Below, in pieces: positions 197-23,774 of a stretch of DNA of 25,222 bases. The notes under the pieces are model-generated. The model saw only the letters and a list, made by a program, of their open reading frames with translations, was not told where the DNA came from and made no database searches. Position 1 is the stretch's first letter; each line of letters begins with the position of its first letter. The position numbers were made by a program, and so were the translations under genes. Source of the stretch: an uncultured Candidatus Binatia bacterium (GTDB taxonomy: Bacteria > Desulfobacterota > Binatia > DP-6); the NCBI GenBank assembly GCA_964562865.1, contig CAZLYE010000298.1, positions 1 through 25,222 on the forward strand, written 5' to 3'.

Positions 197-808
197 TCAG
201 CCGGTCTGCCGCCGTCCCGCCTCGCCCTTGCGCGGCGTCGAGCGCAGCGCCGGTCGCCTGGCCGGTCCCGCTCCGCCGTCGGCCTGGAGCGCCGACTCGA
301 GCTCGTCGACGAACGCGAGCTCGACGTCCAGGTGCCGCACCCGCCGGCCGAGCCACAGCGGGCGCGTGACGCTGCCGTCGGGCGCCCGGCCGTCGCGCAC
401 CATGTCGTGCGCGCGCCCGAGGTCCCGACGCCGGGCCTTCAGCTCCTCGCGCCACTCGCCCAGCACGCGGCTCGCGCGTCGCCCGCCGTTCTTCACGACG
501 AGGAACGCACGCAGGGAGTGCTCGTGCTCGTCCGACCCGTCGCATCCGTCGCGCGCGGGCACGGCCAGCCACGCGTCGAACGTGGCGCACCCCGCGTCCG
601 TGATCTGGTACGGGATGCGACGCGGGTCCGCGTCGGCCGGGTTCTCGCCGGGGCGCACCAGCCCGCCGTCCCTGAGGCGCTGGAGCTCGCGGTAGAAGTT
701 CCCGACGCTCAGCGCGCGCCCGGTCCCGTCACGATACTCCTTCATGAGCGCGTAGCCGTGCTGCGCCCGCCCGTGGCGGAGAAGACCCAGGATCAGATGC
801 CGCATCAT
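197..808 (-). CDS. PadR-family transcriptional regulator (long type, with C-terminal helical domain)
   Basis: N-terminal LILGLL…HGYALMKE…GNFYRELQRL…GLV…RRIPYQITDAG is the PadR winged-helix signature, followed by an amphipathic C-terminal domain. Confidence 0.9.
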   Translation of the reverse strand: MMRHLILGLLRHGRAQHGYALMKEYRDGTGRALSVGNFYRELQRLRDGGLVRPGENPADADPRRIPYQITDAGCATFDAWLAVPARDGCDGSDEHEHSLRAFLVVKNGGRRASRVLGEWREELKARRRDLGRAHDMVRDGRAPDGSVTRPLWLGRRVRHLDVELAFVDELESALQADGGAGPARRPALRSTPRKGEAGRRQTG

Positions 809-950: not shown

Positions 951-1098
951 TACCGCGGCGCGGCCGACGGATGGCGATCGCCTCGCCGTCCGCGCACGAT
1001 CGTCATGCCGGTGACGCCGCGTCCACCGCCGAACGCCCCGCCATGCGATCCGCCACGTCGGAGCGAGCGGACGTCGGCGAAAAGGTGCCCTTTCGCGA

Positions 1099-1114
1099 GG
1101 GTACGCTCGTTGCA
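1099..1114 (+). promoter_or_regulatory. Candidate sigma54 -24/-12 promoter
   Basis: GGGTACGCTCGTTGCA is GG-N10-GC with ACG and TTGCA, against consensus TGGCACG-N4-TTGCW. Predicted +1 near 1125, next to the ATG at 1126. Confidence 0.5.
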
Positions 1115-1125
1115 AGTCCCCCCGC

Positions 1126-1344
1126 ATGCGCCAGAGCATGGCCGGCACGACCCTCCCTCGCACGCGCCGCCGGGATCCGGTTCCTGACGAGGCTCCGCTG
1201 AGCGACGAGTCGCCACGGCCGGACCCCGCCGAGTGCTGGTGCTGTGGCGTGCCGGCGCCGTGCCGCTGCGAGCGGGCGGGTCGGTGCGACGAGTGCGGGT
1301 GGTGCCGCGAGCACTGCCGGTGCTTCCGCGAGGGCGAGCGATGA
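1126..1344 (+). CDS. Cys-rich microprotein, 72 aa (metallothionein-like or Zn-finger-like)
   Basis: C-terminal CWCCGVPAPCRCERAGRCDECGWCREHCRC holds 10 Cys and 1 His. Third positions are GC-rich. The stop overlaps the next ATG (ATGA, 1341-1344). Alternative start at ATG 1138. Confidence 0.6.
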   Translation: MRQSMAGTTLPRTRRRDPVPDEAPLSDESPRPDPAECWCCGVPAPCRCERAGRCDECGWCREHCRCFREGER

Positions 1345-1601
1345 GCGCGCCGGGCAGTGACGTCGTCTGCCGCGTCGTCGCGCGCGTCACCGGGCGGGCA
1401 CCCCTCGAGGTCGAGATCGTGCAGGACGCCGACCCGCGCAACGGATGGCTGGTCCGCGTCTGGCTCGACGACGGGACGCTGCGCGACTACCGCCTGAGTG
1501 CCGCTGCGAACGGCGCCGTCCCCGACGAGCTCGTCGAGGAGCGGTTCCCGCGCTGGCCGCCGGCGGACATCCGCGGGCGGATCCAGCGCTGCCGCTGCTG
1601 A
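1341..1601 (+). CDS. Hypothetical protein, 86 aa (MSAPGSDVVCRVVARVTG…RIQRCRC)
   Basis: ATGA coupling to the upstream ORF, coding-like codon usage, globular beta-rich composition. Start trimmed from the track ORF 1233..1601. Confidence 0.7.
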   Translation: MSAPGSDVVCRVVARVTGRAPLEVEIVQDADPRNGWLVRVWLDDGTLRDYRLSAAANGAVPDELVEERFPRWPPADIRGRIQRCRC

Positions 1602-1635: not shown

Positions 1636-2646
1636 TCAGCGGAGCGCCGGCACGACCTCGGCGCCAAGCGCCCGGAGCGACCCGAGTGCCACCTCCCGCG
1701 GGATGTTCGCCGACCCCGGGATGAGCCACACGAAGTCGAGGCCGAGCGCGGCGAGGCGGTGCAGGCGCTCGCGCGCGTGGGCCGCCGGCCCGGCGACGGC
1801 GAACCAGTCGACGAACGCGTCGTCGATCCCGGCGGTGTGCGGCACGTTCGTCCGCGTGTGCTCGCGCATGTCGTAGTGCTCGCGGAGCCAGCGGGCCGCG
1901 GCGGCGAGCGGCGGCGGGAGCTCCGCGAGCCGGCTCCCGGGGAGCGCGGAGAACCGCGCGAAGCTCGCGGCGGAGCCGCGTGCGGCGTCCCGCGCGACGC
2001 GTGCGTCGTCGTGGACGACGCAGTTGACGAAGGCGCCCCAGCGGAGCGCACGCGGATCGCGACCCGCGACGCGGGCGGCCTCGCGCGCCCGCGCCACCAC
2101 CGTACCGACGTACGCGGCGTCGGCGCCGACGGCGAGGCACACGGCGTCCGCGCGCCGCGCCGCCACCTCGACCACCCGGCGTCCGGTCGCGGCGACCATG
2201 ACCGGCGGCTTCGCCACGCCTGCGTGCGGCTGCCACTCGAGACGGCTCGCGAACCCGTCCCGGTCGACGGCCTCGCCGGCGAGATACGCCTGCAGCAGCG
2301 TCACGTAGCGCTCGAAGCTGGCGACGGGATCCTCCCGCTTCCCGATCCGCTGCACCGCCGAGTCGCCGCGCCCGATGCCGACGACCGCGCGCCCGCCGCT
2401 CTCCACCTGGAGGGCGAGGGCGGCCGACGCCGTCACGGCCGGGTCGCGGGTGAGCGAGTTCGTGACGCCCGGACCGAGGATCAGACGCGAGGTAGCGGCC
2501 GCCGCGAGCGCGAGCTGGCCCCACACCTCCGGAAGGAGGTTCTGGCTGTCGGGAAAGAGGACGCCCGCGAAGCCGAGACCCTCCACGAACTGCGCGAGCG
2601 GAGCCGCCTGACGCGGCGGGGCGAAGAGGAGCACACCGACGTCCAT
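1636..2646 (-). CDS. Luciferase-like (LLM) flavin- or F420-dependent oxidoreductase
   Basis: EGLGFAGVLFPDSQ, LAAAATSRLILGPGVTN, ESGGRAVVGIGRGD and PPVMVAATGRRVVEVAARRADAV match the Mer-like LLM TIM-barrel. ATG at 2646 preferred over the track TTG at 2685. Confidence 0.9.
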   Translation of the reverse strand: MDVGVLLFAPPRQAAPLAQFVEGLGFAGVLFPDSQNLLPEVWGQLALAAAATSRLILGPGVTNSLTRDPAVTASAALALQVESGGRAVVGIGRGDSAVQRIGKREDPVASFERYVTLLQAYLAGEAVDRDGFASRLEWQPHAGVAKPPVMVAATGRRVVEVAARRADAVCLAVGADAAYVGTVVARAREAARVAGRDPRALRWGAFVNCVVHDDARVARDAARGSAASFARFSALPGSRLAELPPPLAAAARWLREHYDMREHTRTNVPHTAGIDDAFVDWFAVAGPAAHARERLHRLAALGLDFVWLIPGSANIPREVALGSLRALGAEVVPALR

Positions 2647-2685
2647 GCGACGGCCCCTATCGCAGCCCGCGGCCCCGTCACGCAA

Positions 2686-3375
2686 CTACCCGCGCATCCC
2701 GACCCTCCGCGTGCGCGACGCCGGCACGCGCCATCGCGCGAGCCAGACGGCCCCCAGCGCGGCCGAGAGCGTCGTCCACACGAGGACCGGAATCATGTGC
2801 CAGGCGAGGACGTGCAGCGAATCGTCGATCGGGCAGGCGACGCGCACGGCGGCCGTGCCGACGACGAACGCCGCGAGGCCCGCGAGCGCTCCCGTGGTGC
2901 GCGCCTCGAGCGGGGCGCCGCGGCGGACGGCCACGAGGATCGCCACCCAGGGCAGCAGACCGAACATGGTGACGCAGAGCGCGCACTGGAGCCCACTCTG
3001 GACGGCCGGACTCCCCGACGACGGCACCGCCGGCTCCGCCAGGAGGAGCACGGCGCTCGCGACACTCAGCACGAGCGCGAGCCAGGCCATCCGGCGCCCG
3101 TCGCGGCCGGGGACGGCGCCGTGGAACGCGGCGCTCGCCGCCGCCGTCGCGGCAGCGAGCAACGTCGCGAGCTCGAGGAGATGGAGCGGCTGGCCGAGCG
3201 TCTTCAGGTCGTGGCGGAGGCTCGCCGCCATCGCGACGCCGATCACGAGCGCGACGAGGAGGAGCCACGAGGCGAGACGTGCCGCCGGCGACCAGAGCGG
3301 GTGCACCGGCGCCAGATCGGCCTTGAGCCGCGCGACGAGCGTATCGTGGACCGGAGGTGTGCGGAGGGCCGTCAC
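2686..3375 (-). CDS. nrsF: NrsF / DUF1109 family membrane anti-sigma factor
   Basis: N-terminal LVARLKADLAPV, about six hydrophobic segments, RRGAP, Cys motifs QCALC and ACPID, and HVLAWH. GTGA overlap with the upstream ECF sigma stop. Confidence 0.88.
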   Translation of the reverse strand: MTALRTPPVHDTLVARLKADLAPVHPLWSPAARLASWLLLVALVIGVAMAASLRHDLKTLGQPLHLLELATLLAAATAAASAAFHGAVPGRDGRRMAWLALVLSVASAVLLLAEPAVPSSGSPAVQSGLQCALCVTMFGLLPWVAILVAVRRGAPLEARTTGALAGLAAFVVGTAAVRVACPIDDSLHVLAWHMIPVLVWTTLSAALGAVWLARWRVPASRTRRVGMRG

Positions 3376-3908
3376 AGGAGCTCCCGCAGCATCTTGTACG
3401 CCCGATGCGCGCGGACCTTGAGCGCGCCGGTCGTCGTGCCGGCGGCCTCGGCCGCCTCCTCGGGCGGCAGCCCGTCGAGCCGCAGCAGCCGGACGGCCTC
3501 ACGCTGGGACGCGGAGAGCGCCCCCAGGGCCTGCTCGAGACGCGTCTTCAGATGACCGTCGGCCTCGGTCGCCACCTCCGGGATCACGTCGACGAGGACC
3601 TCGTGCGCCTGGCGCGTGAGCCCGCGGCGCCGGTGGTCGGCCGCCACGCGTCGAGCGATCGCGAAGAACCACGGCTCGAGCGGGCGCGATGGCTCGTAGG
3701 TGTGCCGCGCGCGATGGAGCGCCATGAAGATCTCCTGATACACGTCCTGGGCGTCCTCCGACCGCCGCACGTGCCGCCGCACGAACCGCATCACGATCGG
3801 ACCCATCTCGTCGAGCAGCTCGCCATACGCATTCGCATCGCCCCGCTGCACCTCCGCCATGAGCCTGGCACGGCGATGGCTCGTCTCGTCACGGTCCCTC
3901 AGCTTCAT
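3372..3908 (-). CDS. ECF sigma factor, copy 1 (ECF16/SigF-like), coupled to nrsF
   Basis: Region 2 LMAEVQRGDANAYGELL…DVYQEIFMALHRARHTYEPSRPLEPWFFAIAR; region 4 LSASQREAVRL…GALKVRAHRAYKML. Start uncertain (3953, 3908 or 3860). Confidence 0.92.
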   Translation of the reverse strand: MKLRDRDETSHRRARLMAEVQRGDANAYGELLDEMGPIVMRFVRRHVRRSEDAQDVYQEIFMALHRARHTYEPSRPLEPWFFAIARRVAADHRRRGLTRQAHEVLVDVIPEVATEADGHLKTRLEQALGALSASQREAVRLLRLDGLPPEEAAEAAGTTTGALKVRAHRAYKMLRELL

Positions 3909-3909
3909 A

Positions 3910-3934
3910 TTCGTCAGGAGCGAGCGGAAGTTAC
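3910..3934 (-). promoter_or_regulatory. Candidate autoregulatory ECF16 box GTAACT-N15-CGAA
   Basis: Minus strand reads GTAACT (3934-3929), TCCGCTCGCTCCTGA, CGAA (3913-3910), T, ATG. Spacer is one base shorter than the 4809 box. Confidence 0.45.
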
Positions 3935-4174
3935 GGCAACCCGGGCGACGCATGTGAACCCGGTCGGCCGCCCGAGTCAATCCACCCTCGAGGGGTTTTG
4001 CGTTTCCGGAAGGTGTCGGCGCGAGGAATCTTCCGCGCTCGGGCGGTGCGCCGATGCCACCCATCCAGAGCCGCGTAACTCCTGCCGTGGCGCCCCCAAT
4101 GATCGAGAAGGGAAACGGCGCATCACGGTCCGCCGTGCACGGCGCCAGACTGCGGGCCGGAGCCCCTGCATCAC

Positions 4175-4771
4175 GTGGTACGCATCGCCACCACAGAGCC
4201 GGCGTCGGAGACCGCGGTCGTGGACCGCCGCGATCCGCCGTCGCGAGCCGAGCGGAGCATGCGCCGCGCGGAGCTGATGCGGTGCGCGCAGCGCGGGGAT
4301 CGGAGCGCCTACGGAGCGCTGCTCGAGGACTCGCTCGCGATCCTGACGACGCTCTTCCGCCGGCGGCTGTCGGATCCACGGGACGTCGAGGACGTCTGTC
4401 AGGAGACGTTGATCGCCGTGCATCGGGCGCGGCACAGCTTCGACGCGTCCCGGCCGTTCGAGCCCTGGCTCGTGGCCATCGCAGGGCACGTCCTCGCCGA
4501 CCACGTGCGGCGGCGCGTCCGCAGGCGCCCCGAGATCCTCGTCGCGATCCCCCCGGAAACGGTGGGAGAAGGCGACGGCGCGGCGGAGTTCGGCTTCGAG
4601 CAGGCCCTCGCGCGCCTGCCCGGAGCGCAGCGCGAGGCCTTCACGCTGATCCAGGTGGAGGGGCTGCCGGTCGAGACGGCCGCCGCCCGCGCCAACACCA
4701 GCGCCGCCGCGCTGAAGGTGCGCGCACATCGCGCGTACAAGGTCCTCCGCGACTCGCTGCGCCGAGTCTGA
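4175..4771 (+). CDS. ECF sigma factor, copy 2 (ECF16/SigF-like), divergent from copy 1
   Basis: LMRCAQRGDRSAYGALL…DVCQETLIAVHRARHSFDASRPFEPWLVAIA…LPGAQREAF…ALKVRAHRAYKVL. About half of aligned residues match copy 1 by manual count. GTG start is uncertain. Confidence 0.9.
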   Translation: MVRIATTEPASETAVVDRRDPPSRAERSMRRAELMRCAQRGDRSAYGALLEDSLAILTTLFRRRLSDPRDVEDVCQETLIAVHRARHSFDASRPFEPWLVAIAGHVLADHVRRRVRRRPEILVAIPPETVGEGDGAAEFGFEQALARLPGAQREAFTLIQVEGLPVETAAARANTSAAALKVRAHRAYKVLRDSLRRV

Positions 4772-4808
4772 GCGTCCGCGCGACGATCCGCCGAGAGATC
4801 GCGCCCCG

Positions 4809-4834
4809 GTAACCGCGGACGGATGGCGATCGAA
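4809..4834 (+). promoter_or_regulatory. ECF16/SigF-type promoter GTAACC-N16-CGAA
   Basis: GTAACC (4809-4814), GCGGACGGATGGCGAT, CGAA (4831-4834). Matches the consensus I recall for Caulobacter SigF. Lies 43 nt upstream of the ATG at 4878, next to two ECF16-type sigmas. Confidence 0.75.
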
Positions 4835-4877
4835 CTGTGGGAAGAGCGCAGTCATCCATCTCACGAAGGGGGGACCC

Positions 4878-6320
4878 ATGAGAAACACGTCGTTCGTTTC
4901 GTTGTCACTCGTTCTTCTCGCCACGTTCGCCGAGGCCGTCCAACCGCCGCCGCCCTGCCACCCGAACGCGACCGCGGGCATGGATGTCGCCGTCGTCAGC
5001 AACCGGGGGGACATCAAGAACCTTCCCGCTCCGTTGAAGGCGCAGCTCGTGCAGCTCGCCTCCCGGCCGCACAGCCAGCTTCCCACCCAGGCGTACGCCG
5101 AGGCGCACTTCGACAACGGCGCGCCTAAGCCGAGCCAGCTCTTCCAGTACTACCTCCTCGACACGAAGGGCTTCGAGCCGAATCCCTTCACGGCCCTGTT
5201 TCCGGGGATCAACGACCAGGCGATGCTGACGGCGACCGGCCCCGACTGCGACCTGCCGACGATCGGTGCGGTCCGCCTCGTCCTCGAGCCCAAGCCGGCT
5301 CTCCCGACGGACCCGAACAACGTGCGCGCGTTCATCGACGTCTTCACCGACGTCGAAGGGCTCTTCGTGATCAACAACGAGAGCGGCTGGTACGAGGGCT
5401 GGATGATCCACGACCTCGAGGTCGCGCCGACCGACAACACGCCCCGTCCCGACGGCCACGCGAAGTTCGGCATGCTCCTCAAGAAGGACGCCGACGCCCT
5501 CAAGGCGATGGGGATGGGCAACAACGTCTTTCCCCACACGTTCACGACCAACGGGAAGCCACCGGAGCCGCCCCAGCCGACGGACCAGTTCCCGACGAAG
5601 CAGACGAACCTCGTGCCGATCCAGCTGAGCATGGGGGCATGGAACACGCTCCAGCAGAGCGACGGGCACGGCTACTGGGAGTTCAACTACACCACGAACT
5701 GGATCCACCCGCTCTACGAGCTCCCCTTCACCGGCGGCCTCCCGGGCACCTTCGAGGCCGGCAAGGTCGGGGCGCTCCAGTCCATCGTCCCGGGTTCGGG
5801 CCCGGCGGGCATCAAGAACGATCCCGTCAGGTACGGCGACAACCCGAACAACAGGGGCGTGATCCAGGCCTCGGGTCCGCGCGACCCCGACAAGTTCGAC
5901 GCCGACGTCGACGATCAGCGCGAGTTTCGCCAGCGTTTCATTCCGAGCGGTCTCGCCAACGAGGTCTTCCTCGACGTCTACGAGCGGCTCGCCTCGTTCG
6001 AGCCGTCCGTCCACGACTTCAACCAGCGCCTCTTCGATGCGTACGCCGCGGAGGTCAAGAGGGTCGACACCAACGGCGACGGCGTCGTCTCGGCGTTCGA
6101 GGGCGACGTGGACACCGCCTCGGACGGCTTCCCCGACAACGAGCGGCTGTTCATTCCCGCGACGAAGTTCAACCGCTTCGCCGTGACGCGCGAGATCAAC
6201 GACGGGCTGCTCGCCCCGCGCTTCGCGCCCAGCCAGAAGGCGTGGGTGCTGTCGGGGATCATCCACCCCGTGAACCCGTCCGTGCCGGCCTCGACGGGCG
6301 AGGACAGCGACGACCGCTGA
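4878..6320 (+). CDS. Secreted protein of unknown function, 480 aa, with one EF-hand-like loop
   Basis: SD GAAGGGGGG; Sec signal peptide MRNTSFVSLSLVLLATFAEA; strong C/G-ending codon bias; DTNGDGVVSAFE at residues 397-408. No family recognised. Confidence 0.92.
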   Translation: MRNTSFVSLSLVLLATFAEAVQPPPPCHPNATAGMDVAVVSNRGDIKNLPAPLKAQLVQLASRPHSQLPTQAYAEAHFDNGAPKPSQLFQYYLLDTKGFEPNPFTALFPGINDQAMLTATGPDCDLPTIGAVRLVLEPKPALPTDPNNVRAFIDVFTDVEGLFVINNESGWYEGWMIHDLEVAPTDNTPRPDGHAKFGMLLKKDADALKAMGMGNNVFPHTFTTNGKPPEPPQPTDQFPTKQTNLVPIQLSMGAWNTLQQSDGHGYWEFNYTTNWIHPLYELPFTGGLPGTFEAGKVGALQSIVPGSGPAGIKNDPVRYGDNPNNRGVIQASGPRDPDKFDADVDDQREFRQRFIPSGLANEVFLDVYERLASFEPSVHDFNQRLFDAYAAEVKRVDTNGDGVVSAFEGDVDTASDGFPDNERLFIPATKFNRFAVTREINDGLLAPRFAPSQKAWVLSGIIHPVNPSVPASTGEDSDDR

Positions 6321-6806: not shown

Positions 6807-8021
6807 TCAGTCGCGATACAGCCTGTGCGCGGCCGCTTCCCTCGCGAACGCCCGGATCTCTCCCCGCCACTCGGCCGCGAGGTCGCGCAGCGACGCTCCC
6901 GACTCGATCGCCTCCCGGATGCGCGGATCCCCGGTGAGGACGTCGATCGGCAGCCGATCCGTCACGTACTCGTAGGGCGGCTGCTTCCACGCGAATCGGT
7001 CGCGGTGGAGCGCGACGACGTCCTGCAGGAGCGCGAGCGTCGTCAGATACGGCTGGTAGCGCGCCGGGTCCGTCACGTGGATCTGGAAGCCGCGACAGAC
7101 CTCGCCGCTCCACTTGTGGAACGTCGGCTGGAAGTCGTGCTCGCGGAGGACGCACCCGGGAAGGCGGCGCTTCTCGAAGCGGGCACGCACCGCGAGGGGG
7201 TCGAGATACGGCGCGCCCCAGACCTCGAAGGGCCGCGTCGTCCCGCGTCCCTCGGAGAGGTTCGTGCCCTCGAGGAGCACCTGCCCGGGATAGACCGCCG
7301 CCGTCTCGGGCGTCGGCATGTTGGGTGACGGGAGCACCCACGGGAGCCCGGTCTCGTGGAAGCTCATGCGCCGCCGCCATCCCTCCATCGGGACGACGGT
7401 CAGCTCGCACGGGCGCTTCCCCGTGCGCTCGGGAAGGCGCGCGTTCACGAGGAGCGCCATCTCGCCGAGCGTCAGCGCGTGGCGCATCGGCACGGGGTAG
7501 AGCCCGACGAACGACTCGTAGCCCGGGCGGATCACGTTCCCCTCGAGCATCGTCCCGCCGATGGGGTTCGGGCGGTCGAGCACCACGACCGACTTGCCCG
7601 CCGCTGCGCACGCCTCGAGCGCGAGCGCGGTCGTCCACTCGAACGTGTACACGCGGGTGCCGACGTCCTGCAGGTCGACGACCAGCGTGTCGATGTGCTC
7701 GAGCATCGCCGGGGTGGGGCTCCGCGTCTCCGAGTAGAGGCTGAAGACGGGGATGCCGAGCCGGCCGTCGGTCGCGTGGCTCGACTCGATCATGTTGTCC
7801 TGCTTCTCGCCCGCGATGCCGTGCTGCGGGCCGAAGAGCGCCGTGAGCCGCGCGCCGCAGAGCCGGTGGAGGACGTCGCGCGACGACACGAGTCCGCGCG
7901 TGACCGACGCCTGGTGCATGAGAAGCCCGACGCGCCGCTCCCGGAGCCATCGCGGCCGCCGGTGCGCCAGCACCTCGAGCCCCGGCAGCACGCCCCGCGT
8001 CCTCCTCACCCCGTCTCCCAT
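6807..8021 (-). CDS. namZ: DUF1343 / exo-beta-N-acetylmuramidase NamZ family
   Basis: VGLLMHQAS, LFGPQHG, SLY, DLQDVGTRVYT, VVVLDRPNPIGG, LPWVLPSPNMPT, LEGTNLSEGRGTTRPFE. No signal peptide visible. Confidence 0.9.
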   Translation of the reverse strand: MGDGVRRTRGVLPGLEVLAHRRPRWLRERRVGLLMHQASVTRGLVSSRDVLHRLCGARLTALFGPQHGIAGEKQDNMIESSHATDGRLGIPVFSLYSETRSPTPAMLEHIDTLVVDLQDVGTRVYTFEWTTALALEACAAAGKSVVVLDRPNPIGGTMLEGNVIRPGYESFVGLYPVPMRHALTLGEMALLVNARLPERTGKRPCELTVVPMEGWRRRMSFHETGLPWVLPSPNMPTPETAAVYPGQVLLEGTNLSEGRGTTRPFEVWGAPYLDPLAVRARFEKRRLPGCVLREHDFQPTFHKWSGEVCRGFQIHVTDPARYQPYLTTLALLQDVVALHRDRFAWKQPPYEYVTDRLPIDVLTGDPRIREAIESGASLRDLAAEWRGEIRAFAREAAAHRLYRD

Positions 8022-19879: not shown

Positions 19880-20472
19880 GGGGCCTTCGCCCGCGCGACG
19901 CCGATCATCGCGTCGCGCGTCACGAGCGCCGCGAGCTCCGGCTCGCCGAGCCCTTCCGTTCCAGGCGGGCGCTCGGGCAGCACGAGGTAGCGGATCTCGG
20001 CGCTGCTGTCCCACACGCGGATCTCGACCGTCTCGTCCAGCGGAAGCCCCATCTCGGCGAGGACCGCGCGCGGCTCGCGGACGACGCGCGATCGGTAGGC
20101 GGGATCCTTGTACCACGACGGCGGGAGCCCGAGCACCGGCCAGGGATAGCAGGAGCACAGCGTGCACACGACGACGTTGTGGACGGCAGCCGTGTTCTCG
20201 AGGACCACGAGGTGCTCGCCCTCCTTGCCGCCGAACCCGAGCTCCGCGATCGCGCGCGTCCCGTCCGCGAGGAGCCGCCGCCGGTAGTCCGCATCCACCC
20301 ACGCGCGCGCGACGACCCGCGCGCCGTTCATCGGGCCGACGTCCTGCTCGTAGAGTCGGATGACCGCGTCGATCACCTCGCTCCGGACGAGCCCCTTCTC
20401 GCGGAGGAGGGACTCCAGCGCCTCGGCGCGGAGCGCCTCACGGCCGGGCGTCTCGTGGTGGTGGTCCGTCAT
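19876..20472 (-). CDS. nthA: Cobalt-type nitrile hydratase alpha subunit
   Basis: Metal site [10 protein letters not shown] (Thr/Tyr variant typical of Co-type), [39 protein letters not shown] overlap with nthB. Confidence 0.97.
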
Positions 20473-21074
20473 TCCTGGCGTGCGGGCTCGAGGTGGCTCT
20501 CGAACACGTCGACGTGGACGACGGCGCGCGCGTCGGCGGCGTCGCCCCAGAGCTCGCGCGCGGCGAAGCGCACGGCGTAGACGCGCTGCGGGTTCTCGCC
20601 GAGCCCGTGCGCGTTGGTGTCGGGGAAGACCCACGCCCCCTGCACGCGCGCGACGACGCCGCGGCGGCCGCGCACGTAGCGCGGGAGACGCGTGTGCCCG
20701 GTGGGATGGACGTCGCGGGCGACGACGGCGTCGCCGACGGCGAAGCGCGGTGCGGCGGCGACCTCGCGCTTCGCGCCCTGGGACGGGACACTGTCCGCCG
20801 GCAACGGGCCGTCGCCGGCGATCCCGGCCTCGACCACCAGCCGCTCGAGCGCCGCGAGCCAGCGGCCGTAGTAGCCCGCGGTCAGATAGACGGCCGGCGG
20901 CAGGCGCTCGATCGCGTGTCGGAAGGCGTCGACGGTGACGAGCCCCCGCGCGATCAGGAACCCGGGCAGCGCGAAGACGCGGCCCTCCCACGGCGCGTGG
21001 AAGACCGGCTCGTCCCGCTCGACCACGACGGGCCCGAACCCCTGCATGCCGCCCAGGTCGTGGATGCCGTCCAC
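20469..21074 (-). CDS. nthB: Nitrile hydratase beta subunit
   Basis: [67 protein letters not shown]. Confidence 0.96.
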
Positions 21075-21080
21075 GGCGGG

Positions 21081-21539
21081 TCAGCCCCCGCTCCGCGCGA
21101 GCGCGCGGTTCACGGACGCGAGCACCTCGTCGAGGAGCCGCGCGAGCTTCTCGTCGCCGCGCCCGAACTTGTCGAGCCGGGCGCTTCCGCCGCGCGCGTC
21201 GTACGTCCCGCGGCCGATGAGCACCCCGTCCTCGTAGAGACGGATGTCGGTGAAGGCGAGGTAGACCGCCATGTCCCACTTCCACTGCGCCTCGTACTCG
21301 AGGTGATAGCGGCACCCCGGCGGCCTCTCGCCCTGGAAGACGGTGGTCTCGATCCCGTGCCGTCCGAGCTGTTCGCGGAGGGTCGGCAGGAACTCCTTGC
21401 TCCACACCGCCCCGTTCTCCTGGACGCAGACCGACGGGATCACGCGCTCGGGAACCGGCTCGACGTGGGTCGTGATGGTGCAGCCGGCCGCGAGCACGCC
21501 CGCGAGGACGGCAGCCGCTCCAAGTGCGCCACGCCGCAT
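21081..21539 (-). CDS. Small lipoprotein, Sbal_3080-like
   Basis: Lipobox VLAAGC; VCVQEN…[18 protein letters not shown]…IGRGTY…LDKF resembles the Sbal_3080 pattern I recall. Start ATG 21539 or 21557. Confidence 0.78.
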
Positions 21540-21548
21540 CGCCCGGCG

Positions 21549-21577
21549 CGGTACCATGGGCCCGTCGGGACGGTCAA
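21549..21577 (-). promoter_or_regulatory. Weak sigma70-like element TTGACC-N17-GTACCG heading the lipoprotein/NHase operon
   Basis: TTGACC at 21577-21572, GTAC at 21554-21551. Same geometry as the element at 14978. Confidence 0.3.
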
Positions 21578-21578
21578 T

Positions 21579-21600
21579 GAACGCCGGAAGAACGCCGGAA
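21579..21600. repeat. Perfect 11-bp tandem direct repeat GAACGCCGGAA x2
   Basis: Copies at 21579-21589 and 21590-21600, with degenerate phased continuations to about 21631, in a divergent intergenic region. Confidence 0.8.
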
Positions 21601-21686
21601 ACTCCCGGAAGCCCTCGAAACCTCTCGGGAACGGCCGCGGGGCACGCCCTGAAGGGCCCTAAAGTCCCTCGGCATCCGGGCCGAGA

Positions 21687-23774
21687 ATGAGCGCGGGAGT
21701 CCCTGCGCCCATGGCGACCCAGACTACCGCCCGCCGGCCAGCAGAACACGCCCTTCTCCGCCTGCTGCAGCGGCAGGGAACCCTGCCCGACGCCGAGGCG
21801 GGACGCCTGACCGAGCTGGCGGCGACCAGCGACCTGCCCATCCAGGAGCTGCTCGCCCGCGAGGGGGTGGTGACGGAGCGGGAGCTCGCGGAGCTCCTCG
21901 CCCGGACGCTGCGCCTGCGGTTCGTCGAGCGGTCGGCGGTCTCCCCCGACCCGGCAGCGGCGGAGGTCCTGAGCGAGAGCGTGGCCACCCAGTACGGCGT
22001 CGTCCCGGTGCGGATCGACGGCGGGACCATCGAGGTCGCGACCGCGAACCCGCTCGACTTCGAGGCGCTGAAGGCGGTCGAGTTCGCCACCGGGCGCCGC
22101 GTCCGCGCGATCGTGACGACGCGCGCGGAGGCCTGGGAAGCGCCGCCCGCGCCCGCCCCGGAGCCCGCGCCCGAGCCAGCGATGGCGGCGGAGCCGGCGA
22201 TGGTGGCGGCGCCGGCGTCGCCGTCGGAGCCCGTGTCGGTGGCCGAGCCGCCGGCGCCGGAGCCCGAGCCGGCGCCGGCGCAGCTCGCTGCGGAGCCGCC
22301 GCGCGAGGACGCCGCTCCGGCCGATCCGGCGCCCGCATCGCCGGAGGCGCTCGCGCCACCCGAGCCGCCCGCGCCATTCGAGGCGCCCGCGTCACTCGAG
22401 CCGCCCGCGCCGTTCGAGCCGCCCGCGCCACCCGAGGCCGAGGCGCCTCCGCCGGCCGCGGACGCGTGGGAGCCGATGCCGCTAGCGGTCGTCAGTCCCG
22501 AGCAGGCGTCGCTGTCGGATCCCGACGTCGCCGAGGAGCTCCGCGCCGCGATGGACGAGCTCCGCAACGAGCAGCGGACGGCGGCGGCCGACACGCGCGC
22601 CGCGACCGCCGAGGCACGGGTCGCGGCCGAGCAGGCGGTCGAGCGCGCCACGGCCGCGCTCGAGGCGCTCCGCGAGCAGCTCGCCGACCTCCGCCGCGAG
22701 CAGTACGAGCAGGCCCGCGCGGCGAGGGTCATGTCGGAGCAGGCGGTCGAGCGGGCAGCCGCCGCCGTCGAGCCGCTCCGCGCGCAGATAGCGGAGCTCC
22801 GCCGGGACGTCGGCGAGCAGGCGCGCCTCGCCGCCGACGCCGGGGCGGAGGCGAGCCGCGCCCGCGAGGCCGCCGCCGAGGTCGGAGCACGAGTCGCCCA
22901 GGCGGGGCAGCCGTCCTCCGACCTCGGGGAGACGCGCGCTGCGGTGGCCGCCGTGCGCGACGAGCTCGCGCGGCTGCGGGCCTTCGTCGAGGACGAGATC
23001 ACGCCCAGGATCGCGGCCGCCGAGGGGGCGATTCCGGACGTCGAGCTGCTCCGGTTGACCGTGGACGAGCTGTCGCGGCCGCAGGCCGAGCAGCACGAGG
23101 CCAGCGCCCGGGCGTCGGCCGACGCGGCGCGCGCGATGGAGCAGGCCGACCGGGCGCTGCGTCGGATCACCGAGGCGACCCTGCCGCTCGCGGAGGAGCT
23201 CGGCGCGGTCCGCGCGGCCTGCGGCGAGCTCCGCGCCAGCCACGGCCGCCTCGAGGCGGCGATCGAGCAGCAGGCCGCGGAGACGGAGAAACGGACCGCC
23301 GCGCTCATCACGGGCCGCATGCGGTCCGTGGCGGAGACCGTCGAGGAGGTGCGGCGCTGGCACGAGCTGCAGAAGTCCTCGGCCGCCAACGCTCGGCTCG
23401 AGACGGCGCTCACGCGGCAGCAGGTGACGGAGGCGCTCCGCCGCGTGGAGGCGCTGGCGAGCGGGCCGTCGGCCGACGACCTCCGCGGGCTTCGCGACGA
23501 GATCGAGGCGATGCGGGCAGAGCAGCGCACGCTCGAGCCGCGCGTCGAGGAACGGACCGACACGCGCATCCGGAGCGCGATCGATCCTCTCGCCGCGCAG
23601 CTGCGTGACCTGCGCGGCACCGTCGCGTCACTCGGCGCGGGGCTGCGCGAGCTCGCGCAGACCGTCGGCTGGATCGCGACGGTGAACCGCCTCGCCGAGC
23701 GTCTGGCGGAGCTGACCGACCTCCCGGCGCGCCTGTTCGCCCGTCTGCGGTACGTCCCGCCCGAGCCGCGCTGA
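21687..23774 (+). CDS. T2SSE_N (GspE/PilB N-terminal, MshEN-like) domain + Pro/Ala/Glu linker + long coiled coil; no ATPase domain
   Basis: ELLAREGVVTERELAELLARTLRLRFV…VLSESVATQYGVVPVRIDGGTIEVATANPLDFEALKAVEFATGRRV; heptad-rich C-terminal 450 aa; no Walker A motif. Alternative start ATG 21711. Confidence 0.88.
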   Translation: MSAGVPAPMATQTTARRPAEHALLRLLQRQGTLPDAEAGRLTELAATSDLPIQELLAREGVVTERELAELLARTLRLRFVERSAVSPDPAAAEVLSESVATQYGVVPVRIDGGTIEVATANPLDFEALKAVEFATGRRVRAIVTTRAEAWEAPPAPAPEPAPEPAMAAEPAMVAAPASPSEPVSVAEPPAPEPEPAPAQLAAEPPREDAAPADPAPASPEALAPPEPPAPFEAPASLEPPAPFEPPAPPEAEAPPPAADAWEPMPLAVVSPEQASLSDPDVAEELRAAMDELRNEQRTAAADTRAATAEARVAAEQAVERATAALEALREQLADLRREQYEQARAARVMSEQAVERAAAAVEPLRAQIAELRRDVGEQARLAADAGAEASRAREAAAEVGARVAQAGQPSSDLGETRAAVAAVRDELARLRAFVEDEITPRIAAAEGAIPDVELLRLTVDELSRPQAEQHEASARASADAARAMEQADRALRRITEATLPLAEELGAVRAACGELRASHGRLEAAIEQQAAETEKRTAALITGRMRSVAETVEEVRRWHELQKSSAANARLETALTRQQVTEALRRVEALASGPSADDLRGLRDEIEAMRAEQRTLEPRVEERTDTRIRSAIDPLAAQLRDLRGTVASLGAGLRELAQTVGWIATVNRLAERLAELTDLPARLFARLRYVPPEPR
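22344..22433 (+). repeat. Intragenic 18-nt tandem repeat x5 (EALAPP/EPPAPF/EAPASL/EPPAPF/EPPAPP)
   Basis: Units start at 22344, 22362, 22380, 22398 and 22416; consensus GAGCCGCCCGCGCCA-Y-Y-C. Confidence 0.85.

Follow-up and report, generated by a model that had tools for sequence, protein, structure and literature searches.

Is a short open reading frame (ORF) with ten cysteine codons, lying in very G+C-rich DNA, a gene, and if it is, what does its product do? The question arises at positions 1126..1344 (+) of contig CAZLYE010000298.1 (assembly GCA_964562865.1, from an uncultured Candidatus Binatia bacterium), whose 25,222 nucleotides were analysed as one stretch, called the window below. The ORF begins with ATG, comprises 72 codons and a stop, and was placed by the ORF listing, by its third-position G+C signal and by homologues under purifying selection in the same frame. 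Its 72-residue product, MRQSMAGTTLPRTRRRDPVPDEAPLSDESPRPDPAECWCCGVPAPCRCERAGRCDECGWCREHCRCFREGER, is referred to as the Cys protein. Cys residues stand at positions 37, 39, 40, 46, 48, 54, 57, 60, 64 and 66 and a His at position 63, giving the ligand pattern CxCC-x5-CxC-x5-CxxCxxC-x2-HCxC (x, any residue). An earlier note, made from the letters of the window, had described this ten-Cys motif behind a Pro/Arg/Asp-rich half, and both the motif and its Cys/His spacing match the ORF sequence exactly. The ORF is a genuine protein-coding gene under purifying selection that was missed by annotation. Its product belongs to an undescribed family with many variants in metagenome contigs, likewise missed by annotation and absent from representative genomes. 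As to function, we place about as much trust as doubt in the following reading: a family of small cytoplasmic proteins whose C-terminal ~32 residues form a structured metal-thiolate cluster domain that would work as an interaction or regulatory module.

One alternative is that no gene is present: in DNA of 74% G+C the frame could be open by chance, or its conservation could be a shadow cast by selection acting on a different frame or strand. Open frames alone say little here, because G+C content is 74% over the window as a whole (66-80% per kilobase) and long ORFs run through all frames of such DNA. Also in line with a non-gene are the unusually high G+C content at codon position 2 (0.70, in a whole-ORF profile of 0.70/0.70/0.86), which is due to the Cys, Arg, Pro, Gly and Ala content, and a promoter and terminator scan at the ORF in which no sigma-70 consensus, no Shine-Dalgarno sequence and no terminator consensus was found; the RNA runs searched lack the window locus. 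Over the Cys-rich part, G+C at codon position 3 was 0.85-0.95 in 120-base sliding windows, with ~0.93 in undoubted genes of the window. The claim that ten Cys codons in one frame are hard to obtain by chance was borne out by first-order Markov simulation of the whole window (200 runs), scored on stop-free 30-codon stretches: the maximum number of Cys codons per stretch was 4-7 in the simulated windows and never 8, compared with 10 observed. In all six frames of the real window, stop-free 30-codon stretches with six or more Cys codons occurred only at this locus.

Homologues were found once the search was made sensitive enough. A word-indexed protein search with the 72-aa ORF returned no matches and an exhaustive HMMER search was needed; among 1.84 billion representatives it yielded 7 protein homologues (E 4.6e-15 to 4.5e-4), which have the core in common and N-termini that are unrelated. 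A hand-made DNA pattern of the Cys spacing, encoding only CRC-x5-CxxCxxCxxHCRC and thus prescribing 7 Cys and the His, identified at least ~57 distinct family loci in metagenome contigs among the matches listed. The homologue check proposed in the earlier note, namely whether the Cys spacing is conserved, thus came out clearly in favour of the gene. Sequencing runs holding the window locus are labelled wetland, peat and soil. The same DNA pattern, run on 185,579 GTDB species representatives, recovered no family member, all 19 of its 19 matches being low-complexity repeats of the CRC/CCC type. Comparison with reference plasmids and phages by tblastn gave chance-level matches only, and a literature search for such a motif or family found nothing relevant. 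The expectation that annotation would easily miss the ORF proved right as well: the protein collection contains its 86-aa neighbour in the window, not the Cys ORF.

The substitution pattern among these homologues argues for translation in the Cys frame. In L001, a 756-nt NCBI metagenome contig that carries the 86-aa neighbour at 78% identity and, just upstream of it, a Cys ORF ending in ...GVPAPCRCERSGRCDECGWCRDHCRCFRDGTR*, 13 of the 16 nucleotide differences from the window Cys ORF fall on codon position 3, and the codon changes are 9 synonymous and 4 non-synonymous. Wetland variants differ from the window in the Cys half mainly at position 3 (8 of 13 differences), the rest affecting variable residues or being the conservative exchange R53K, whereas differences in the tail half are unbiased (6/4/3 by codon position). 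Across 39 distinct aligned DNA versions of the core, mean entropy by codon position was 0.41/0.38/0.98. The ratio of non-synonymous to synonymous substitution rates (dN/dS), likewise proposed in the earlier note as a check, was 0.15 in the Cys frame, or 0.23-0.26 when codons fixed by the search pattern were left out, and it exceeded 1.5 in four of the five other frames. The remaining frame, antisense and sharing the wobble position, had a dN/dS of 0.30; 22 of 55 loci have stop codons in it within the core, which ruled out an antisense gene as the cause of conservation. The contigs that carry homologues moreover differ in G+C content (61-75%) and are unrelated in their flanks. It is on these comparative data (homologues, third-position substitutions and the lowest dN/dS in the Cys frame) that the reality of the gene rests, and they refute the non-gene reading, to which we give a practically negligible probability, short of direct proof of translation.

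Which parts of the protein are constrained? The conserved Cys10-His1 core spans 1234..1326 (+), from C37 to C66 and F67, as delimited on the 39 aligned versions, and its consensus is CWCCG-x3-P-CRC-[ED]xAG[KR]-CxxC[GD]WC-x2-HCRCF. Conservation extends to positions that the search pattern did not impose. Among the Cys these are C37 and C39 (39/39 each) and C40 (36/39, with Ala in one clade); among other residues they are W38 (33/39), G41 (38/39), P45 (34/39), [ED]49 (39/39), A51 (37/39), G52 (39/39), [KR]53 (38/39), W59 (38/39) and F67 (34/39). H63 and R65 are conserved alongside the Cys in the same alignment, and a few other homologue copies have lost one Cys or are frameshifted. The conserved W, G, P, AG[KR] and F flanking the Cys therefore point to a defined fold. 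An AlphaFold2 (AF2) model built on an eight-sequence alignment gave the core two short helices at a predicted local distance difference test score (pLDDT) of 70-81, and the N-terminal tail a pLDDT of ~60.

The tail (1126..1233 (+), residues 1-36; 7 Pro, 6 Arg, 4 Asp and 3 Glu) could not be aligned among homologues. Measured from the nearest in-frame start to the first Cys, it is ~14-37 residues long in clade A, the clade of the window; across the family, stop-to-stop frames allow ~14 to more than 200 residues, again unalignable, and in some clades the open frames exceed 200 codons and include a hydrophobic segment. The tail is probably a poorly constrained, disordered appendage.

This layout bears on a suggestion of the earlier note, that the ORF encodes a ribosomally synthesised and post-translationally modified peptide (RiPP) precursor. 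Such a precursor would consist of an N-terminal leader and a Cys-rich C-terminal core that is crosslinked through thioethers or otherwise modified and then released. In its favour are a leader-like stretch before a Cys-rich C-terminus, an arrangement shared with the short SCIFF/ranthipeptide precursors, the shortness of the protein and the presence of several paralogues on some contigs. Genes of a maturation machinery are missing, however: no radical-SAM, lanthipeptide synthesis (LanB/C/M), YcaO, protease or exporter gene was found in the 25-kb window or related contigs, a result that, like the other neighbourhood negatives below, is based on window-wide Pfam scans and on neighbour clustering over 56 related loci. 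Conservation is the reverse of that in RiPP families, the would-be leader being unconserved and highly variable in length and the core almost invariant; the window core contains no Ser or Thr; and larger enzymes carry the domain too, at the N-terminus or internally. The suggestion is disfavoured by the absence of a maturase, the reversed conservation and the embedding of the domain in enzymes, and we consider such a precursor very improbable.

What, then, would the core do? We infer metal binding, the identity and number of the metals, the cytoplasmic location and a regulatory or adaptor role along the following lines. The window protein has no hydrophobic segment and no signal peptide, so that its Cys residues would face the reducing conditions of the cytoplasm and bind metal instead of forming disulfides. 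The ten Cys and the His of the core would together ligate a compact metal-thiolate cluster; eleven ligands would fit three Zn(II) ions with bridging thiolates, or a Zn4-type cluster, Zn being the most likely metal. A metal-thiolate cluster domain is suggested because eleven ligands fall within 30 residues, aromatic and Gly positions are invariant, the model is compact, the location is likely cytoplasmic and the module is reused in other proteins. The earlier note's multi-Zn-finger proposal is hence favoured in its general sense, by conservation of Cys, His and flanking residues, with metal binding itself predicted from sequence.

Known families gave no assignment. The Cys ORF matched no family in Pfam-A (hmmscan, E<=1), in NCBIfam 20, in PHROGs v4 or in PADLOC, and a PDB sequence search with the single Cys protein returned noise only. 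The protein is not a member of the SmtA/BmtA, Fer4, CXC or WhiB families, since there is no profile or fold match; the resemblance is one of ligand density or of a single motif. Among the closest known systems are CXC domains: those of tesmin/LIN54 (PF03638) and MSL2, pre-SET domains and the metallothionein beta-domain repeat CxC within ~30-40 residues, as the Cys protein does. By resemblance to the Zn3Cys9 cluster of CXC domains, ten Cys and one His would be used most economically by a trinuclear Zn-thiolate cluster. CXC domains differ in being eukaryotic DNA- or chromatin-binding modules with another order of motifs, and there was no match to them in Pfam or among PDB structures searched with Foldseek.

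A metallothionein-like role is the natural competitor. Here the Cys10His segment would bind several Zn(II), Cd(II) or Cu(I) ions and protect the cell from their excess as a buffer or detoxifier. SmtA/BmtA (PF02069) and MymT are, like the Cys protein, small cytoplasmic proteins in whose dense Cys array His also takes part as a ligand. The Zn4Cys9His2 cluster of SmtA has eleven ligands, a count shared by alpha-domain clusters and by the core; MymT binds a Cu(I) cluster and has CxC motifs, as the Cys protein has. Cys makes up about a third of the core, which has three CxC motifs and one His. An NrsF/ECF (extracytoplasmic function) sigma pair lies 1.3 kb away in the window, and an NrsF-type system responds to heavy metals in Caulobacter. 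Yet this sigma neighbourhood is not kept in other loci, and neither a metal transporter gene nor a metal-responsive regulator gene was found in the window or related contigs, nor a riboswitch nearby. The pattern is indeed unlike SmtA, as the earlier note had stated: at E<=1 there was no Pfam match to bacterial metallothioneins or any other family, and the Cys spacing differs. Non-Cys residues, including two Trp and the Phe, are nearly invariant and far more conserved than in metallothioneins, and relatives are found fused to enzymes and, in phage genomes, beside genes for terminase and portal. A bulk metal sponge fits poorly with this non-Cys conservation and with the phage homologues and enzyme fusions. 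Of the earlier note's buffer proposal, what stands is buffering as a possible way of working and what falls is membership of SmtA/BmtA; overall we regard a dedicated buffer as unlikely, roughly one case in a handful.

A second, serious competitor is a miniature Fe-S protein, in which the CxxCxxC motif and a remote Cys would hold a [4Fe-4S] cluster and the other ligands a second cluster or Zn, the protein acting as an electron carrier or as a WhiB-like sensor of redox state, O2 or NO. The last four Cys before the final CxC partner do follow the spacing CxxCxxCxxxC (C54-x2-C57-x2-C60-x3-C64), often with Gly after the second Cys, which is identical to that of clostridial-type 2x[4Fe-4S] ferredoxins, PsaC and NuoI. 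These proteins and related subunits were also the sole PDB matches of a profile of the wider superfamily (described below), over exactly this stretch. The matches are non-significant (E 0.076 or worse) and 13-15 residues long. Ferredoxins have two such motifs and the Cys protein one; Arg follows the fourth Cys in place of the usual Pro; there was no Pfam match to Fer4 or WhiB at E<=1; and beyond the motif there are six further conserved Cys and the His, seven invariant ligands that a single cubane leaves unexplained. WhiB-like (Wbl, PF02467) proteins offer an analogy of lifestyle only: they are small Cys cofactor proteins that act through partners, and their small size and presence in bacteria and phages resemble what is seen here, whereas they have four Cys with different spacing, and there was no evidence of an actinobacterial origin. 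We give an Fe-S protein a low probability, about one in seven.

The metal-cluster reading gains from the reuse of the module elsewhere. A looser pattern, CxC-x5-CxxCxxCxxHCxC, which did not demand CxCC, was run on IMG/VR and matched low-complexity repeats and ~17 ordinary proteins. Ten of these ~17 viral proteins also have CxCC[G/K/S/N] 5-25 residues upstream, as have four metagenome proteins, so that non-repetitive proteins of predicted viral and other metagenome contigs share the skeleton CxCC-(x5-x25)-CxC-x5-CxxCxxC-x2-HCxC. In a superfamily alignment of 17 sequences the ten Cys and the His are invariant and there is one variable insert. The family hidden Markov model (HMM), run on the viral proteins, reached L175 at E 7e-5 and others at 0.02-0.3; because only one viral protein is thus reached convincingly, the superfamily link rests mainly on the ligand skeleton. 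In L175 the related Cys module is N-terminal to DUF4406, and in viral L173 it is followed by two DnaJ-like CxxCxGxG repeats; in L142 (1523-2320) a complete DAPG hydrolase domain is followed in frame by the family core itself. In predicted phage contigs Cys-module ORFs belong to the packaging module or adjoin it: they lie between the genes for terminase large subunit and portal in viral L168 and L177 and near terminase in viral L173 and L147, one such ORF being upstream of terminase. In Pfam, NCBIfam, PHROGs and PADLOC the Cys module of the viral relatives had no family match.

A separate family of small proteins was also noticed. It has the form M-x-GQLWQE-CxC-G-x-EPVCxxCExCxKHCxC-GKP...PYRRGIGQGFG, with 7 Cys and a His and without CxCC, and matched no known family. 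This 'GQLWQE' family was recorded at L017, L029, L032, L036, L095, L098, L100, L102, L113, L147, L157, L159, L166, L176, L193 and L200, in metagenome contigs (several Hain-H.., and one GTDB metagenome-assembled genome labelled CG_2015) and viral contigs.

Through what would the Cys protein act? In the window it is followed by the gene for an 86-aa protein (1341..1601 (+); called protein P0001), here termed the partner. The coupling claimed in the earlier note is present, the ATGA at 1341..1344 (+) joining the stop of the Cys ORF to the partner start. G+C by codon position in the partner gene is 0.77/0.54/0.93, a coding-type profile. The protein has three conserved Cys (Cys10 and those of a C-terminal CRC, within RCRC) and a conserved RWPPxxIRG motif, and is predicted to be beta-rich, the AF2 model having five beta strands at pLDDT 64; Foldseek found no significant PDB fold match for this model, and Pfam, NCBIfam, PHROGs and PADLOC contained no match. 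Five distinct clade-A loci (window, L001, L002, L040 and L061), with differing outer flanks, have the partner immediately behind the Cys ORF, and a sixth homologue (P0003) lies on a JGI contig with room upstream for a Cys ORF. The two ORFs overlap by 4 nt in the window and L002 and are separated by 1 nt in L061 and by 27 nt in L001. In the last case an insertion of 27 nt relative to the window (L001 96-132) repeats the ATGAGCG junction and parts the Cys ORF stop from the partner start; translational coupling is therefore not universal. The partner HMM had no match in other clades, which places the partner in clade A only, and a search of the partner alignment against GTDB genomes and metagenomes gave no related loci.

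Outside clade A, the neighbour most often seen on the same strand is a small ribbon-helix-helix (RHH) DNA-binding protein. Its gene adjoins the Cys ORF on the same strand in 13-14 of the 56 loci, in several clades, and is the commonest neighbour across clades; RHH-bearing loci are L031, L137, L128, L085, L110, L053, L094, L047, L142, L125, L066 and L087. The conserved sequence of this neighbour is WVQLATRIPKxLHRxLKLHCV...FVVxALxEKLG, and its Pfam matches (HicB, RHH_10, 56B_RHH, Antitox_RHH) were under the curated cut-offs. As a rule 30-60 nt separate the end of this gene from the Cys ORF that follows; L066 and L087 have the reverse order, the RHH gene being ATGA-coupled to the Cys ORF in the former and beginning 13 nt behind its stop codon in the latter. 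The tight coupling to a Cys-bearing partner, or the adjacency to RHH genes, suggests that the Cys protein works via a protein partner: in clade A it would act as a pair with the 86-aa protein, with which it is translationally coupled in the window, and elsewhere through its clade-specific partner or RHH neighbour.

The same neighbourhoods permit a further explanation, a mobile, toxin-antitoxin-like or regulatory cassette in which the Cys protein is effector or co-regulator of the RHH protein (here of a PadR regulator), for instance a 'split NikR-like' metal or redox subunit supplied in trans. Besides the RHH genes, their ATGA coupling in L066 and close downstream position in L087, the contigs themselves lend it some weight. 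Flanking blocks are shuffled between contigs in a mosaic, L031 and L070 each carry a pair of Cys ORF paralogues ~2.1 kb apart (in L031 the cores are at 3252 and 5335 of the oriented locus, corresponding to 6868-6930 (-) and 4785-4847 (-) as stored), an IS66 transposase adjoins a Cys ORF copy in L121, and the family is absent from GTDB representatives. On the other side, neither the Cys protein nor its 86-aa partner nor the RHH neighbour matched a PADLOC family, no toxin family was matched, most loci with enough flank have no RHH gene, and in the window's clade neither RHH nor mobile-element genes are found nearby. We consider such a cassette improbable. It concerns biological role and is compatible with metal-thiolate cluster chemistry.

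Mosaic flanks, two-copy contigs, frameshifted copies and a nearby IS66 are features of a clade of 61-66% G+C in which a conserved 52-aa ORF with two transmembrane segments follows the Cys ORF. Highly conserved, this 52-aa ORF (MRPEVAGLIAGATVTLSSVLFGLAAKDTNPWFVVWVVLSAT...) follows clade-E Cys ORFs in L076 (429-587) and 13 further loci; its PADLOC matches were weak (E 0.009-0.03).

Several observations weigh against the reading of a metal-thiolate cluster domain working as an interaction or regulatory module. Foldseek found no significant neighbour of the AF2 model of the Cys protein in the PDB (one match, E=9) or BFVD, so that the predicted fold is unvalidated. The only PDB proteins approached by the superfamily profile are the ferredoxins named above, and CxC-rich spacing is typical of Cu(I)/Zn metallothioneins. 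No single partner explains the whole family, as the 86-aa protein is restricted to one clade and RHH genes to about a quarter of the loci. Frameshifts occur between CWCC and CRC or just after CRC in the clade-E copies L004, L005, L051/L075 and L092/L107, and L072 has TGA in place of a conserved Trp codon; these copies are either decaying paralogues or assembly errors, and the several frameshifted copies suggest a partly decaying multi-copy family. With regard to expression, none of the RNA runs searched for the window locus contains it, and at the clade-E locus L076 soil metatranscriptome contigs cover 371-602, the downstream 52-aa ORF and not the Cys ORF.

A more far-reaching form of the cluster-domain reading takes the Cys10-His1 module as an unrecognised metal-cluster fold, defining a superfamily of uncultivated (probably soil or wetland) bacteria and tailed phages, with the stand-alone form as a metal- or redox-sensing subunit provided in trans to the RHH protein, PadR or the 86-aa partner. 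We advance this tentatively and put it at perhaps one chance in four.

The surroundings of the Cys ORF in the window were examined for regulatory features. Upstream, a conserved DNA block at 997..1060 (+), found by blastn and MAFFT alignment with the closest relative L040, is a candidate that may serve as operator or promoter, and no sigma-70 consensus was found there. A second short block, GGTACGCTCGTTGCA, at 1100..1114 (+), identified in the same alignment, lies 12 nt 5' of the ATG, holds a TAnnnT hexamer and may likewise be functional. The gene upstream of these non-coding blocks differs between L040 and the window. An Rfam scan of the region upstream of the Cys ORF, including 997..1060, found no RNA family and no riboswitch. 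The conserved upstream block was also considered as an ECF-type promoter (GAAC...CGTC), a reading dropped because of the 21-nt spacing on the L040 alignment. Further upstream and divergent is the gene for the PadR-family regulator (197..808 (-); Pfam PF03551, E 4e-11), which might control the Cys ORF/partner pair; any link of PadR to the Cys ORF is weak, because no such regulator was found beside other family members in the related loci. Downstream and convergent with the Cys ORF/partner pair is a gene for a luciferase-like oxidoreductase (1636-2685 (-)), from the ORF and Pfam scan.

Other parts of the window were noted in passing. An NrsF-type anti-sigma gene (2686-3375 (-)) is overlapped by an ECF sigma gene (3372-3950 (-)), and a second ECF sigma gene follows at 4175-4771 (+); this NrsF/ECF group lies 1.3 kb from the Cys ORF and is not conserved beside other family members. 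A 480-aa ORF (4878-6320 (+)) has a strong coding signal, no Pfam match and a local G+C of ~0.66, lower than in the rest of the window. A gene for a nitrile hydratase beta subunit (20469-21074 (-)) adjoins a 222-aa ORF (21081-21749 (-)), which is without a Pfam match at E<=0.001 where the alpha subunit is expected.

The general type, a Cys-rich metal-binding microdomain, is known; the family itself is undescribed. Cys-rich microproteins are a blind spot, as gene callers skip such ORFs in high-GC genomes. Few types of bacterial metallothionein have been recognised, and if the Cys protein were a metal buffer it would be a new one. If it is a sensor, it would be the first of a new class of bacterial microproteins, 'metallothionein-like' sensors systematically missed in gene calling. 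If the core binds a defined metal cluster, it would provide a new compact metal-binding scaffold of interest for metalloprotein chemistry, metal sensing and protein design, and, if true, also a handle on a gene set common to uncultivated bacteria and phages.

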